Positions 1 to 6,185 of a stretch of DNA of 6,185 bases are shown here, piece after piece. The stretch is from a virus (taxonomy: Duplodnaviria; Heunggongvirae; Uroviricota; Caudoviricetes), in the IMG/VR virus record IMGVR_UViG_648276662_000013. One strand, given 5' to 3'. The notes beneath the pieces are model-generated. The model saw only the letters and a list, made by a program, of their open reading frames with translations, was not told the DNA's origin and did no database searches. Within the stretch, counting starts at the first letter, position 1, and each line of letters starts with the position of its first letter. Position numbers and translations under genes: made by a program.

Positions 1-1194
1 GAGCAGATGCGTAATCTTATTACAGCATTCCCAGAAGAGTTTGAGGAAGTCCGTAAAGGGATGAGTTATGTCGATGATGCTCAAAGGGATGATTATGGCA
101 ATCTGGCGCTCAAAGCACAGGTAGCCTCATCGCTTGGTCAGGGCGCATTTGGCAGGTTCATGATGGATAATGAGCAGGAGATGCGTCGTTTAGGTATCCC
201 TCCAGAAACTATTGCGGAAATGCAGGTTAATGACCCGCAGGGCTTCCAGCATTTCGCAGGTAATCTGGCGCTGTTTTCTCTCGGTCATGAGAAGTATTTC
301 GATATCAAAGATCAAATGGAAGGTCGGGATATTGAGCGTGGCAAGTTGGCAGAGACAATCCGCAGCAATCAGGCTGGCGAAGCACTTCAGGCGAGAGGGC
401 AGGATATTAGCCGAGCAAATGCGTTAACGTCAGCATATGCACCAACAGCAGCAATGCAGAATTACAATCAGTACGCGCAAATGTTAAAGGCGGATCCAGA
501 GGGGGCGGCGGCATTTGCGGCAGCGGCTGGAATTAATACAAACGCCAAAAAATTAATGAGTGTTAGAGAAAACGATGATGGCACTGTCACAAAATACTAC
601 ACAGACGGAAGTGAAGAGCAGGGAAAACTAAACCAGCCAATATCTGGAGATGGGTTTCGTCCAATAGCTTTGCCAACAGCCCAAAAGATCATGGAAAAGT
701 CGCCAGAAGGGGCTAAAAAAGCTGCTGGATTTGCATACAGGGTTAGGGATGCTCTTGATTCAATAGATACACTGAAAGACCAGCTTAGCCCACAGCGAGT
801 GGCGATCATTAATAATGCTTTGGGTAATGGGACGCTGGCTAACTTAACGCTCAGCCCAGCAGAGCAGCAATACGTTGTTAATGCTAATGACGCAATAATG
901 GCAATACTCCGTCAGGAAACAGGGGCATCTATCCTACCAGCTGAAATGTCCAAATATTATCAAATGTATTTCCCTCAGCCTGGTGATTCCACAAAAACCA
1001 TTGATACCAAGCGCCGGAAGATGGAAAACCAGTTCAATTCGCTGAAAGCTGCTTCTGGTCGAACTTATGATGCTTTGCGGGTTATTTCAGCAGTTGACAG
1101 AGGAACTGCTTCTTCGTCGCAGACATTGCCGCAATCTGAGCAGGTATCACAGCCAGCAGCCAGCAGTAACTTTTCTTCACTATGGGGTGATTAA
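1..1194 (+). CDS. 5'-partial hypothetical protein (at least 397 aa in window), hydrophilic with no TM segment and a Ser/Gln-rich C-terminal tail; candidate phage virion/internal (DNA-ejection-type) protein, product is inference only
   Basis: Open frame runs from base 1 with no in-frame stop before the first ATG at 7, so the gene probably starts upstream of the window. Stop TAA 1192-1194 overlaps the next ATG 1194-1196 (TAATG), indicating an operon with translational coupling. ORFs 212..427(+) and 597..809(-) inside it are short shadow ORFs. Confidence 0.8.
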   Translation, partial: EQMRNLITAFPEEFEEVRKGMSYVDDAQRDDYGNLALKAQVASSLGQGAFGRFMMDNEQEMRRLGIPPETIAEMQVNDPQGFQHFAGNLALFSLGHEKYFDIKDQMEGRDIERGKLAETIRSNQAGEALQARGQDISRANALTSAYAPTAAMQNYNQYAQMLKADPEGAAAFAAAAGINTNAKKLMSVRENDDGTVTKYYTDGSEEQGKLNQPISGDGFRPIALPTAQKIMEKSPEGAKKAAGFAYRVRDALDSIDTLKDQLSPQRVAIINNALGNGTLANLTLSPAEQQYVVNANDAIMAILRQETGASILPAEMSKYYQMYFPQPGDSTKTIDTKRRKMENQFNSLKAASGRTYDALRVISAVDRGTASSSQTLPQSEQVSQPAASSNFSSLWGD

Positions 1195-3299
1195 TGGCTA
1201 AAGCATGGAAAGATGTTATCGCCTCTCCACAGTATCAGGCGTTAGCACCAGAACAAAAAGCGCAGGCTCAGGAGCAATACTTCAATGAAGTCGTGGCCCC
1301 GCAAGCCGGAGAAAGTGTAGAGCAGGCTAAGCAGGCTTTTTATGCTGCCTATCCACTACCATCAACGAATGAAATAGACCGATCCCAATCAGCAACTCAA
1401 AATATTCAACATACATCATCTGATAATTCTCTTGCGTCAGGGTATGCAAAGTTAGCTACTCAGCAAAGAGAGGGGCTTGAGCGTTCAGCAGAACAGGGAG
1501 CCAGTCTTGGGGCTGCGATGCGCGATGCTATAACAGGCGAAAGCCGAATGACTCCAGAGATGGAGAGACTGCAAAATGTCGCCTCTGCCCCAGAATTGAA
1601 CTCACTAAGCATGGATGCCCTAAAGGCTGGATGGTCTCAACTTTTCGGCTCTGACGCGTCTCAGGAAAAGATTCTTCAGGGAATGGGGGCGACATTAAGG
1701 CAGGATGAGAAGGGGAATACTATCGTTTCTCTGCCATCAGGTGATTATGCCCTGAACAAGCCGGGTTTATCACCGCAAGACCTGACCTCGTTTCTTGCTA
1801 ATGCGTTGGCGTTTACACCAGCGGGCAGGGCTGGAACGGTGCTTGGTGCCATAGGAAAATCAGCAGCTACAGATTTAGCACTACAGGGAGCCACCAGCCT
1901 TGCTGGTGGAGAAGATATTGATCCGTTACAAACGGTAATTTCTGCTGGCATTGGTGGTATTGGTAAGGGGCTGGAAAATACAGCGAGTGCGGTTTCGAGG
2001 GCTGTTCGTGGTGATATGTCGCCTGAAGCAAAGGCTGCTGTCGACTTTGCATCGGAAAGAAATCTGCCGTTAATGACCAGTGACATGCTGAAAGATAAAA
2101 CCTTTATGCAGAGTCAGGCTCAGACATTAGGCGAAAGAGTTCCTTTTTTTGGAACCGGTAAGAATCGGCTGAATCAACAACAAGCACGAGAAAATTTAGT
2201 CAGAACATTTAGCGATGGTCTGGGTGGCATTTCTGATAAACAGCTTTATGAATCTGCGACTAAAGGGCAACAAAAATTCATTGAGGCAGCAGGAAAGCGA
2301 TATAACCGCATAATTGACGCTATGGGGGATACCCCTGTCGATCTCTCAAACACGGTAAAAGCTATCGACAATCAGATTGCCGTGTTAAGCCGCCCGGGCA
2401 AATCTCAGGATAGAGCCGCGGTAAAAGTCTTGCAGCAATTTAAAGACGATATCACCAGCGGACCAAATGACCTGCGTCTGGCGAGGGAAAACAGAACCGA
2501 TCTTCGAAAGCGATTTATGGCGTCATCTGACACTGTTGATAAAGATACGCTCCAGAAAGCCAGCGATATTATCTACAAGGCATATACGGCGGATATGAAA
2601 AAAGCCGTAGCCAAAAATCTTGGAGCAGACGAAGCCATTAATATGGCAAGGGTTGATCGCTCATGGTCTAAATTCAATGACATGATGGGAAGAACGCGCG
2701 TTCAAAAGGCAATAGCCAGCGGCAAGGCCACGCCTGAGGATGTAACAAAACTCGTTTTTAGCCAAAGCCCATCAGAACGTTCTCAGCTTTACAGGCTTCT
2801 GGATGACAATGGTAGGCAAAACGCACGAGCAGCCATAGTTCAGAATGCTGTAGATAAGGCGACTGATCCGTCTGGAAATATCAGTGTTGAGAAGTTTATT
2901 AATGCGTTACACCGGAACAGGAAGCAATCAGCAACTTTCTTTAAAGGCGTACATGGAAAGGAACTGGACGGCGTTATTAAATACCTCAACGATACAAGAC
3001 ACGCGGCAAAAGCGAACGTTCAAAACTTAAATGGTCAGCAGCTTTATGGATTGTTAGTTGGTGGTGGCATCATAAACGCAGCAGTATTAGCGGGGATGCT
3101 AAAAACGGCTGCGTTTGTTGTTCCTGCTGCTGGTGCCGTAGGCGGAGCAGCGAAGGCATACGAAAGCCCTGTTATACGAAATGCCTTGTTACGTCTGGCA
3201 AATACGCCAAAAGGTAGCACAGCATATGACAGAGCGATCAGTACGGTCACACAATCGCTCACCAGAGTCGCACAGGCATCACAAAAAGAATCTCAATAA
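1194..3299 (+). CDS. 701-aa hypothetical protein: Ala/Gln-rich N-terminus, Gly/Ala-rich middle, C-terminal ~37-residue hydrophobic helical hairpin; candidate membrane-inserting virion/ejection-type protein (function not established)
   Basis: 2.1 kb ORF whose ATG overlaps the upstream stop, with a G-rich SD-like GGGGTG at 1184-1189. Hairpin LYGLLVGGGIINAAVLAGML-KT-AAFVVPAAGAVGGAA is residues 617-653, about nt 3042-3152. Stop TAA 3297-3299 is followed by a hairpin + T-run. Antisense ORFs 1745..2086, 1867..2052 and 3044..3262 are shadows. Confidence 0.85.
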   Translation: MAKAWKDVIASPQYQALAPEQKAQAQEQYFNEVVAPQAGESVEQAKQAFYAAYPLPSTNEIDRSQSATQNIQHTSSDNSLASGYAKLATQQREGLERSAEQGASLGAAMRDAITGESRMTPEMERLQNVASAPELNSLSMDALKAGWSQLFGSDASQEKILQGMGATLRQDEKGNTIVSLPSGDYALNKPGLSPQDLTSFLANALAFTPAGRAGTVLGAIGKSAATDLALQGATSLAGGEDIDPLQTVISAGIGGIGKGLENTASAVSRAVRGDMSPEAKAAVDFASERNLPLMTSDMLKDKTFMQSQAQTLGERVPFFGTGKNRLNQQQARENLVRTFSDGLGGISDKQLYESATKGQQKFIEAAGKRYNRIIDAMGDTPVDLSNTVKAIDNQIAVLSRPGKSQDRAAVKVLQQFKDDITSGPNDLRLARENRTDLRKRFMASSDTVDKDTLQKASDIIYKAYTADMKKAVAKNLGADEAINMARVDRSWSKFNDMMGRTRVQKAIASGKATPEDVTKLVFSQSPSERSQLYRLLDDNGRQNARAAIVQNAVDKATDPSGNISVEKFINALHRNRKQSATFFKGVHGKELDGVIKYLNDTRHAAKANVQNLNGQQLYGLLVGGGIINAAVLAGMLKTAAFVVPAAGAVGGAAKAYESPVIRNALLRLANTPKGSTAYDRAISTVTQSLTRVAQASQKESQ

Positions 3300-3303
3300 C
3301 TGG

Positions 3304-3326
3304 TTAGCCATGGATGGCTAATTTTT
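3304..3326 (+). terminator. Candidate intrinsic terminator of the + strand two-gene operon
   Basis: Perfect inverted repeat TTAGCCAT-GG-ATGGCTAA (3304-3321) followed by TTTTT (3322-3326), starting 5 nt after the stop of the 701-aa gene. Stem is only moderately GC-rich; it overlaps the stop of the convergent minus-strand gene. Confidence 0.5.
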
Positions 3327-3668
3327 GTTCTTTGCTCTCATCCATAGGTAAAGAAGGGAAAGAACAAGACAAAAAACAGAGAATAGATAACCTACCTCAT
3401 ATGGTGCGCCAAAAAAATTAGCTATTGATACGGGCAAAAAAGCTGAAGCGATCAAAATTGAAAGGCAAAAAATAAGCCCAGTAATATAGTTTATTAAATT
3501 CTTAAATGAGAAACGTTTTGCTTGATTTACGGTCTTAACGAACGATCGCTTAACGACGGATAAAAGCAAATAGATGGCGACAGTTGCTAATGCCCCTTTC
3601 CACCAGTCTGGATATAGTTTTGCGACAATCAGACCAAGTAAAACCATGATGACAGCCTGAGCATTCAC
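3318..3668 (-). CDS. Small polytopic membrane protein (about 116 aa from the GTG start, 4 predicted TM helices); candidate superinfection-exclusion/immunity-type accessory protein
   Basis: ORF track gives 3318..3737 (139 aa) from an ATG with no SD. An in-frame GTG at 3666-3668 is preceded by GGGAGG (complement of 3675-3680) with a 6-nt spacer, so it is the more likely start. Four hydrophobic stretches: AQAVIMVLLGLIVAKLY, ALATVAIYLLLSVV, LINYITGLIFCLSILIASAFLPV, VGYLFSVFCLVLSLLYLWM. The 3' two-thirds (about 3320-3560) is visibly AT-rich versus flanks (not computed). A 420-nt stop-free frame in AT-rich DNA is unlikely by chance. Confidence 0.6.
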   Translation of the reverse strand: MNAQAVIMVLLGLIVAKLYPDWWKGALATVAIYLLLSVVKRSFVKTVNQAKRFSFKNLINYITGLIFCLSILIASAFLPVSIANFFGAPYEVGYLFSVFCLVLSLLYLWMRAKNKN

Positions 3669-3783
3669 ACCAACCCTCCCTTTAGCTTTGTTTAGAATGG
3701 CAATCATCATATATCCAAGACATGGCATTTGGTACATAGCTTGGGTCGGGATTTCAAATCCGCTCCCAGTTGATGGGGCCGTT

Positions 3784-4492: not shown

Positions 4493-4948
4493 TTATACGC
4501 TGACCTTACAATCAATCACCGCTTTTAACTTTTCAGCATTGCTTCCCTGACGCTTCCACGCGCTGTAAATATCTTTATCCCACGCTTTACCAGCTTTTGT
4601 TTGATAGCCTGCTTCATTGATCCGTTCAGCTATCACACGCCCATTATCAAATCCCTGTTGGATGGTATCGGCAATGATCTTTATAACTGCCGTTTCGTTA
4701 TATGGCTTTGGTGGGATGTTCGGCTTTCCGGCAATAAGCGACGCAGCGGCTTTTTCCATGCGCTCCACCAGCCCAAGCATTCGTGAATCAATAGACTTTT
4801 CCGGCTGTCCCAGCTTCATGCGAATCGCATCAACAAGCCAGGAGGTTTTATCCCCTCCAGAAGCGAGAACAGACCGATTAAACTCATCCTGCAATTCAGA
4901 TGGGATGCGGAACGCGACCAGATTAGATTTGCTCATTGCAAAGACCAT
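4493..4948 (-). CDS. Ribbon-helix-helix (CopG/Arc/MetJ-type) DNA-binding protein with an uncharacterised ~100-aa C-terminal domain; candidate repressor/regulator of the divergent control region
   Basis: N-terminal NLVAFRIPSELQDEFNRSVLASGGDKTSWLVDAIRMKL fits the RHH pattern (beta-strand with alternating hydrophobics, helix A, G-x-T/S turn, helix B). Neither ATG (complement of 4946-4948 or 4934-4936) has a clear SD, so the start is uncertain and could be leaderless. Opposite-strand ORFs 4601..4786 and 4617..5021 are Ser/Cys-rich shadows. Confidence 0.75.
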   Translation of the reverse strand: MVFAMSKSNLVAFRIPSELQDEFNRSVLASGGDKTSWLVDAIRMKLGQPEKSIDSRMLGLVERMEKAAASLIAGKPNIPPKPYNETAVIKIIADTIQQGFDNGRVIAERINEAGYQTKAGKAWDKDIYSAWKRQGSNAEKLKAVIDCKVSV

Positions 4949-5207: not shown

Positions 5208-5495
5208 ATGATAAGGGACAGGAAAGCTGAAGAGCTGGAGTCAAAAGGGCTATACCGGAGAGCTGCCGCACGATGGGCAGAAGTCATGATGCTGGCAGAT
5301 GGCGATAAAGAACGTGAACATGCAGCAAAAAGACGCTCTGAATGTATCCGTAAGGCGGCACGCCCACCAGCAACTACAGACAGATTCGGAGATTTAAGAC
5401 AGGCAGTTAAGCGGACTCATTCGGCTCTTGGTATGGATGAGGAAGCGAGAGGGTACTTCAGGCGTTATCGCGATAAAGATTGCCAGAGACAGTAA
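5208..5495 (+). CDS. 95-aa basic, helix-rich small regulator; PerC/Pch-family-like transcriptional activator (by recall, unverified)
   Basis: ATG with good SD. N-terminal KAEELESKGLYRRAAARWAEVM resembles, from memory, the conserved core of PerC-family activators (Pfam PF06069). Divergently arranged from the RHH gene across a repeat-rich control region. Confidence 0.7.
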   Translation: MIRDRKAEELESKGLYRRAAARWAEVMMLADGDKEREHAAKRRSECIRKAARPPATTDRFGDLRQAVKRTHSALGMDEEARGYFRRYRDKDCQRQ

Positions 5496-5880: not shown

Positions 5881-5902
5881 GTGTACATAAGGGTGTACAT
5901 AA
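5881..5902. repeat. Tandem direct repeat GTGTACATAA-GG-GTGTACATAA
   Basis: Two exact 10-bp copies separated by GG, each containing the palindrome TGTACA, in non-coding DNA. Confidence 0.5.
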
Positions 5903-6020
5903 TCAAAAACCGCATTAGAAATAAACCAGCTACAATGCGGCATTGAAGCCAATACTCTACAAACAGATTCAGAACATTGAATAACTCGTAACGCCAATTC
6001 TTACTTTTCAGCCTTCACAA

Positions 6021-6052: not shown

Positions 6053-6185
6053 TTCCCCGCAACTTCAATTCTGTTTTGCGTGCCTGCTCCAGATTTTGCG
6101 ATGTTTTTTTGCCCAGCACACTGAGAACGTGAGATACTCACAACTGTATATAAATGGGTCTTCCCCGATCATGGTGGGAAGACTC

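Follow-up and report, generated by a model that had tools for sequence, protein, structure and literature searches.

The window analysed here, a stretch of 6,185 nucleotides from a tailed-virus record (Caudoviricetes; IMG/VR record IMGVR_UViG_648276662_000013), carries a gene for a 701-amino-acid (aa) protein that homology and synteny place in the family of the P22 ejection protein gp16, and near the C-terminus of this protein lies an apolar Gly/Ala-rich segment at residues 617–653, hereafter referred to as the hairpin. We found the hairpin to be an apolar element that is shared across the family and maintained by selection, and to coincide with the region of gp16 in which P22 acquires escape from the exclusion protein SieA. 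We consider it probable (roughly 0.6) that the hairpin, once ejected, comes to insert into the inner-membrane end of the DNA conduit or to line it, perhaps together with a second apolar region at residues 196–272. The 701-aa protein itself adds one more member to a known family, of which the hairpin is a conserved hallmark.

A conserved apolar hairpin in the gp16 family

Family membership of the 701-aa protein was evaluated by profile, sequence and fold comparison. The profile phrog_770 (‘DNA transfer protein’) covered residues 19–699 with an E-value of 2.5e-163, and BLASTP against P22 gp16 gave 30% identity over residues 210–683 (E 5e-53). The Pfam family PF26808 (Phage_P22_gp16), whose model is not in the Pfam set used to scan the open reading frames (ORFs) of the window, is precomputed on database proteins 93–99% identical to the 701-aa protein. 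Directly upstream on the same strand lies a homologue of gp20 (Inj_translocase), and profile comparison placed both long proteins of the window in phage ejection families (phrog_770 for gp16, Inj_translocase and phrog_917 for gp20). The family-conserved residues G614, Y656, E657, S658 and R662 were all present. Relatives with 70–75% identity are found in complete P22-like prophages of Salmonella and Yersinia, where gene 16 is preceded by the genes for portal, scaffold, coat, gp4, gp10, gp26, gp14, gp7 and gp20; a complete E. coli P22-like prophage (L029) encodes a gp16 97.7% identical at the protein level, along with gp14, gp7 and gp20, gene 16 of the E. coli prophages of the L025 type shows ~94% DNA identity, and phage N7 has a 67.5%-identical copy. 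AlphaFold2, run on an alignment of 111 sequences, returned an all-alpha model with a mean predicted local distance difference test score (pLDDT) of 82 and a predicted template-modelling score (pTM) of 0.62, in which residues 270–610 were mostly above 90 and residues 62–78, 201–270 and the hairpin were the exceptions. All fold matches in BFVD were phage-derived (down to E 7e-19), the named ones being injection proteins or lytic-transglycosylase-domain proteins. A virion ejection protein was one of two identities that an earlier sequence-only reading of this DNA had proposed, and it is the one borne out by the family matches, the gp20 neighbour and the prophage copies.

In the frame of the gene, bases 3042–3152 translate into residues 617–653, LYGLLVGGGIINAAVLAGMLKTAAFVVPAAGAVGGAA, and the 50 residues around them (611–660) include 11 Ala and 9 Gly. 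The segment is apolar, as the sequence-only reading had described, and no other stretch of the protein is more so, with maximal Kyte-Doolittle values of 1.94 and 1.79 in windows of 15 and 19 aa, respectively, the runner-up 19-aa window reaching 0.95. When the whole protein was shuffled, the 19-aa maximum was matched in 12.5% of shuffles, and 3.4% yielded a stretch of 41 aa with no more than one charged residue. The hairpin signal is therefore only mildly unusual inside this single protein, and it is across the family that the signal is strong.

An exhaustive family search gave 1399 representatives at E ≤ 1e-3, from which 102 relatives of 25–60% identity, P22 gp16 included, were aligned. All 102 have an apolar Gly/Ala-rich stretch of 28–41 aa with 0–4 charges at the hairpin position, and in 67 of them this position holds the most hydrophobic 15-mer of the protein. 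It is placed between the two best-conserved motifs of the family, and most of the residues conserved at 90% or above frame it, with F583, G593, L598, T601, A604 and G614 before the hairpin and Y656, E657, S658 and R662 after it. Gly614, three residues ahead of the hairpin, is Gly in 99 of the 102 aligned sequences, and Y656, E657, S658 and R662 are conserved at 90% or above in both alignments (A1 and A2). The hairpin sequence between these motifs is hypervariable among the relatives, and it is its apolar, low-charge character that is conserved. Between two island copies of the gene, the ratio of nonsynonymous to synonymous substitution rates (dN/dS) over residues 611–656 was 0.08.

The finer architecture proposed in the sequence-only reading was upheld in part. 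Two helices joined by a Lys-Thr turn had been suggested, and AlphaFold2 does predict helices here (614–623, 626–630 and 637–656), but with low confidence (pLDDT about 47–65 over 611–640), and the position of the turn is ambiguous, a polar Asp/Asn column of the family falling near N628-A629 in the multiple alignment and at K637-T638 in the BLAST alignment. The suggested glycine-zipper spacing was rejected, as the counts of small-xxx-small motifs (7, versus 7.6 in segment shuffles; P = 0.75) and of GxxxG motifs (2, versus 1.4) are those expected from composition. The hydrophobic moments of the hairpin were very low (0.07 and 0.16), so that it has no amphipathic face; the segment is uniformly apolar yet marginally hydrophobic. 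Nor is the remainder of the protein ‘otherwise soluble’ as had been assumed, since a second conserved apolar Gly/Ala region occupies residues 196–272, where it provides the top hydrophobic window in 32 of the 102 relatives, with pLDDT below 50 over residues 201–270.

Escape mutations, a proposed membrane insertion and the alternative of a protein interface

P22 gp16 is packed in the capsid, is expelled through the tail before the DNA and finally forms, at the inner membrane, the distal portion of the DNA conduit made up of gp7, gp20 and gp16 (PMC10883804, PMC8954989). Putative C-terminal transmembrane (TM) helices have been reported for all gp16-like proteins in a review (PMC8954989), so the feature had already been noticed in general terms. 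Leavitt et al. (2024) found that escape from SieA depends on G532W and P546S in gp16 together with a change in the C-terminal region of gp20; these two were the sole gp16 escape changes found, and G532 is conserved in five diverged phages (PMC10883804). P22 G532 aligned to Gly614 in both the BLAST and the multiple alignment, and both also put P546 within the hairpin, the multiple alignment at N628 and the BLAST alignment at K637. The homologue of the hairpin is therefore the genetically defined target region of an inner-membrane exclusion protein in gp16, and, with both escape mutations in this segment, the hairpin is probably also the surface on which inner-membrane exclusion proteins act. 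As a separate observation from a very small sample, the two phages with a known SieA, P22 (type A) and HS1 (type B) (L002, L026), have the least hydrophobic and most charged hairpins of those compared.

We propose that the hairpin would act as a post-translationally inserting, marginally hydrophobic membrane element, possibly together with residues 196–272. Its Gly/Ala richness would keep the protein soluble inside the capsid and able to thread its way out via the portal, while the segment would be greasy enough to partition into a bilayer and to pack tightly once several copies meet. The invariant Gly614 might serve as a hinge, and the helix bearing the Y-E-S...R motif as an interfacial anchor. 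An analogous role has been proposed for the putative C-terminal TM regions of T7 gp16, which resembles the present protein in being the largest ejection protein, soluble in the capsid, that then refolds and enters the inner membrane via apolar helices; it differs in showing no detectable sequence similarity, in its length of 1318 aa with an N-terminal transglycosylase domain, and in its place in the capsid core stack. The closer comparison is with P22 gp16 itself, which shares homology over residues 210–683, the slot after gene 20, the all-alpha prediction and the TG...YES motifs on both sides of the apolar Gly/Ala segment. The window protein, however, is 92 aa longer with a different N-terminal region of ~200 aa, and its hairpin exceeds that of P22 by 9 aa and is much more hydrophobic (mean Kyte-Doolittle 1.18 versus 0.54), with two charges instead of four; moreover, its gene resides on a chromosomal island, whereas that of P22 resides on a phage.

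Several observations weigh against membrane insertion. The best 19-mer of the hairpin scored +2.6 kcal/mol on the Hessa scale, an unfavourable insertion energy, so the hairpin is not a classical Sec-type TM helix, and its helices are short (15–20 aa each). The corresponding segments of P22 and HS1 are much less hydrophobic (mean Kyte-Doolittle 0.54 and 0.28, four charges each). According to Perez et al. (2009), as cited in PMC10883804, residues 476–609 of P22 gp16, its C-terminal 134 aa, are dispensable for membrane association in vitro, and on the same grounds the authors of the escape study regarded the escape sites as probably without effect on membrane association (PMC10883804). The hairpin is therefore not the sole membrane-binding element and may not be one at all. 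Since escape also needs changes in gp20, a gp16-gp20 contact fits the genetics as well as a membrane site does. Finally, no solved relative was found in the PDB by sequence (phmmer) or by fold (Foldseek, none below E 0.1).

These points make it possible, although we do not favour it, that the hairpin is not a membrane element but a protein-protein interface, a flexible linker within the conduit or two helices packed away in the soluble fold before ejection. As an example of an interface, the C-terminal domain of gp16 would dock on the C-terminal end of the gp20 tube. On any of these readings, membrane binding would reside in the N-proximal Gly/Ala region, in keeping with the prominence of residues 196–272 as the top hydrophobic window in about a third of the relatives (32/102). 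On the other hand, a hypervariable sequence with a conserved apolar, low-charge character suits a lipid-facing segment better than a specific interface; the hairpin has no amphipathic face to offer to a partner, and AlphaFold2 packs it without confidence. The membrane-binding part that the published P22 truncations imply may be residues 196–272, and such a role might reconcile the truncation data with the escape data. We therefore retain insertion into, or lining of, the inner-membrane end of the conduit as the preferred reading of the hairpin.

The island that carries the ejection genes

The window matches E. coli chromosomes at 98–99% over its whole length, and in the matching genomes it makes up the right-hand third of an island of ~17 kb that lies between yicC and dinD (L003:4969-21943 in one of them), which is bracketed by a 12-bp direct repeat in L001, L003 and L024. 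The island encodes an integrase, an AlpA-type helix-turn-helix (HTH) protein, an AntA/B antirepressor, ash, an Icd-like protein, a Zn-ribbon/Toprim primase fused to DUF927 or DUF5906, small ORFs, gp20, gp16, the membrane protein described below and PerC, and it is devoid of capsid, tail and lysis genes in the matching genomes. Head or portal genes, for which the sequence-only reading had suggested looking, are absent upstream of the ejection genes in these genomes, the place being taken by the integrase, AlpA, antirepressor and primase genes; likewise, gp16 is not within a P22-like virion cluster (portal, coat, gp4/10/26, gp14, gp7) in the best-matching genomes, although copies 70–98% identical do occur in complete prophages.

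Judged by its genes, the island is an EcCIMP1-like phage-inducible chromosomal island (PICI). The P22-like podophage Kapi1 induces and transduces EcCIMP1, an island of E. coli MP1 that also plays a part in superinfection immunity; of the ejection-type genes of this island, the published account says no more than that they may serve in packaging or morphogenesis (Pick et al. 2025, PMC11773190). By analogy with the induction and packaging seen for EcCIMP1 with Kapi1, the present island may be mobilised by P22-like helper phages. The two islands share the backbone of integrase, AlpA-type HTH protein, AntA/B antirepressor, ash, Icd-like protein, TOPRIM-DUF927 primase and PerC, as well as small ORFs with identical protein accessions and the location of the ejection-protein genes directly after the primase. 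They differ in that EcCIMP1 is at thrW and carries gp14-like, gp7-like and gp20-like genes and a 906-aa gene-16 protein of the HK620/CUS-3 type, followed by a lipoprotein, whereas the window’s island is at the yicC-dinD site and carries only gp20 and a P22/N7-type gp16, followed by a membrane protein with 3–4 TM spans. The same backbone is also found at thrW with gp14-like (DUF2824), gp7-like (56% to P22 gp7), gp20 and gp16 genes, another island copy has unrelated cargo in place of the ejection genes, and an Edwardsiella island combines primase, SSB, gp20, gp16 and a 3–4-TM gene. A full-text literature search for links between satellites and ejection proteins found nothing beyond the EcCIMP1 paper.

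Some further observations concern EcCIMP1 and its relatives. The 906-aa protein of EcCIMP1 (L037:13481-16201, minus strand) has no BLAST similarity to the 701-aa protein and has a Gly-rich apolar stretch of its own at residues 799–817, ~100 aa from the C-terminus. The gp7-like PICI protein (L037:17517-18194, minus strand) has a C-terminal Gly-rich apolar stretch, IGNVAGAIGGGLIGLVGGL, making such segments a recurring trait of several of the system’s ejection proteins. The PerC-family protein of the window is 54% identical to that of EcCIMP1, EcCIMP1_025, which is reported as repressing, not activating, expression from the enterocyte effacement locus (LEE).

It seems distinctly unlikely to us that recombination left part of a P22-like prophage in the island, with its ejection genes as inert passengers and the hairpin without a role at this locus. 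The yicC-dinD island does lack gp7, gp14 and all head and tail genes, and sister islands carry other cargo at the same place. However, gene 16 was an intact 701-codon ORF in all four islands inspected; two of these copies (L001:16194-18009 and L033:14781-16596), which are 99.7% identical to the window, bear a RefSeq pseudogene flag (‘missing C-terminus’), but with their ORFs intact the flag looks like an annotation artefact and the loss of the hairpin in these islands was rejected. The dN/dS of gene 16 between two island copies was 0.18 over about 155 substitutions, a value to which recombination with functional prophage alleles, 94–98% identical, could contribute. The island-specific junction into gp20 was present in 216 of 5426 complete E. 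coli genomes (the membrane-protein gene in 226), and ejection modules, with two types of gene 16, are also kept by the islands of MP1 and Edwardsiella and by those at a second att site.

The slot after gene 16 and the remaining features of the window

Six credible ORFs were listed in the window, and the features assigned to it are collected in Table 1. The gp20-like frame is open from base 1 of the window (codon 92), so that 397 C-terminal codons lie inside it; the complete gene of 488 codons is visible in L003. Its stop overlaps the start of gene 16 at position 1194, both genes having the same orientation.

Table 1. Features of the 6,185-nucleotide window, with positions, strand and the basis of each assignment.
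Feature	Positions	Strand	Basis
P22 gp20-like ejection protein gene, 3' part (codons 92–488)	1..1194	+	Pfam Inj_translocase E 1.7e-38; phrog_917 E 9.7e-85
Predicted 701-aa P22 gp16-family ejection / ‘DNA transfer’ protein	1194..3299	+	phrog_770, BLASTP, AlphaFold2
First conserved apolar Gly/Ala-rich region, aa 196–272	1779..2009	+	Family-averaged hydropathy positive, charge low
Codon of near-invariant Gly614 (P22 gp16 G532)	3033..3035	+	BLAST and multiple alignment
C-terminal apolar Gly/Ala-rich helical hairpin, aa 617–653	3042..3152	+	Translation, alignment, hydropathy, AlphaFold2
Conserved Y-E-S...R motif closing the hairpin, aa 656–662	3159..3179	+	Conservation of at least 90%
Terminator-like stem-loop and T-run between convergent genes	3302..3333	+	Consensus scan; single site
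Convergent small membrane protein, 3–4 hydrophobic spans	3318..3737	-	Hydropathy
Small ORF, 73 aa	4192..4413	-	phrog_6324 match
Small ORF	4493..4948	-	ORF listing
PerC-family regulator, usual accessory gene of EcCIMP1-like islands	5208..5495	+	Pfam PerC E 2.5e-33
GGTGTACATAAT, right-hand copy of the 12-bp direct repeat flanking the island (putative att core)	5892..5903	.	Repeat comparison

The sequence-only reading had pointed to a small membrane protein convergent with the 701-aa gene and right after it, and such a gene is indeed present, 18 bp past the stop of gene 16. Its start is called differently in different records (139 aa in the maximal ORF, 129 aa in RefSeq with the start at 3707, 109–116 aa in the prophage copies); hydropathy predicts four membrane spans in the 139-aa form and three in the prophage forms. 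The first ~29 codons of the maximal ORF (MMIAILNKAKGRVGVN..., window 3625–3737) are common to an unrelated 146-aa protein in the same slot of another island (L024:15169-15609), and may be a conserved leader, or else the true start lies further downstream as in the prophage calls. The family is small (22 clusters from E. coli, Salmonella, Yersinia and Edwardsiella) and had no match in Pfam, PHROG, PADLOC or the phage collection. A member was found directly after gene 16 and convergent with it at seven of the places examined, namely the P22-like prophages L008, L025 and L029–L031, the Edwardsiella island L027 and L028, where the adjacent gene encodes 705 aa and has no Pfam record; in the islands L001, L003 and L033 an annotated 129-aa membrane gene occupies the same slot.

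In P22 itself, the convergent gene after gene 16 is sieA, and the suggestion in the sequence-only reading of an exclusion protein at this place is sustained as to position and not as to sequence. BLASTP of the membrane protein against SieA gave E 0.99, and hhalign gave probabilities of 0.6% with SieA type A and 0.08% with type B (prophage HS1), as against 99.5% for the control comparison of type A with type B. The SieA motif FxRYPxEAxxFNK (PMC10883804) was absent from the 139-aa sequence and from alignment A3. The membrane protein as a distant SieA (PF26849) was accordingly rejected on the comparison with types A and B. Both are small multi-pass membrane proteins, by prediction in the case of the window ORF, encoded convergently and immediately after gene 16, the slot that for SieA lies between gene 16 and the tailspike/immI region; they differ in sequence, profile and motif, and in length (109–139 aa versus 164–212 aa for SieA). 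On position alone, the membrane protein may be regarded as a candidate exclusion factor.

A variable ‘moron’ position thus follows gene 16 in this system. Besides SieA of type A in P22 and of type B in HS1, it holds a 103–106-aa single-span protein in N7 and in Salmonella prophages, an 81-aa TM protein in a Vibrio phage, the 146-aa protein of L024, which looks secreted, and in EcCIMP1 a 232-aa lipoprotein with an LAGC lipobox (L037:12632-13330, minus strand), which is a candidate for the superinfection immunity of EcCIMP1; in phage L and in a Proteus phage nothing convergent follows gene 16. A coupling between the type of hairpin and the downstream gene (long hairpin with 3–4-TM gene, short hairpin with 1-TM gene) was considered and rejected, as it fails in two of eight cases, Edwardsiella having a short hairpin with a 3–4-TM gene and L024 a long hairpin with the 146-aa protein. 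The apparent coupling is best explained by linkage, because the hairpin lies ~150 bp from the end of the gene.

The second identity put forward in the sequence-only reading, a pore-forming, colicin-like toxin with a convergent immunity gene, is highly improbable. Pore-forming colicins are water-soluble proteins in which an Ala/Gly-rich apolar helical hairpin of ~40 aa inserts post-translationally, and the partner immunity protein is a small multi-pass membrane protein encoded by a convergent gene, so there is a geometric likeness to the present pair; Foldseek also returned alpha-pore-forming toxin components, but at noise level (PaxB, E 0.43; AhlB, E 0.91). Against this stand the unambiguous gp16-family membership, the conserved synteny of the family within P22-like virion gene clusters and the phage-derived folds, along with the lack of a toxin, immunity or defence family match for any ORF of the window in Pfam, NCBIfam or PADLOC, of a colicin pore-forming domain in the 701-aa protein by sequence or as a 10-helix-bundle fold (Pfam, NCBIfam, Foldseek against the PDB) and of receptor-binding or translocation domains; the genomic setting is different, and colicins kill whereas gp16 delivers DNA. 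On this evidence of family, synteny and fold and with no toxin match, we rejected the toxin and accepted the ejection protein.

Of the other features, the stem-loop and T-run between the convergent genes did not exceed shuffle expectation for the region in number, and a promoter scan upstream of the membrane-protein gene gave nothing above shuffle expectation. The 73-aa ORF, which is kept in the islands, encodes a hydrophobic C-terminal tail and matched phrog_6324 with E 1.4e-10 and, below threshold, SLATT with E 0.0096. The last ~30 bases of the window (6155–6185) diverge from every best-matching E. coli genome in the middle of the LexA box of dinD, where the window reads AACTGTATATAAAT up to the break and GGGTCTTCCCC... 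beyond it, compared with ...AAATACAGTT in other genomes; an insertion, a variant of the strain or the joining of contigs may account for this.

For the 701-aa protein itself little changes: the gp16 family gains another ejection protein, whose home is somewhat unusual. For the gp16 family, the location of the SieA-escape sites of gp16 in or at the edge of a universally conserved hairpin provides a concrete target for mutagenesis of both conduit crossing and the SieA block. For the PICIs, the ‘hypothetical’ or ‘DNA transfer’ genes after the primase in islands of the EcCIMP1 type encode P22-like ejection proteins, either the whole set or part of it, whose alleles are as diverse as those of the phages, an ejection-protein set that the EcCIMP1 paper does not identify as such; and the envelope proteins encoded in the slot after gene 16, the 3–4-TM family and the EcCIMP1 lipoprotein, are obvious candidates for the superinfection immunity of EcCIMP1. 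One may go further and speculate, although we regard this as rather doubtful, that EcCIMP1-like PICIs load their own gp20 and gp16, and some also gp14 and gp7, into helper capsids, and that the 3–4-TM protein is a new exclusion protein, unrelated to SieA, that acts on the hairpin region of gp16. If so, satellite particles or helper progeny would carry a conduit of the island’s choosing, PICI-mediated superinfection immunity against P22-like phages would have a molecular explanation, and satellites would be players in the arms race between ejection proteins and exclusion proteins.

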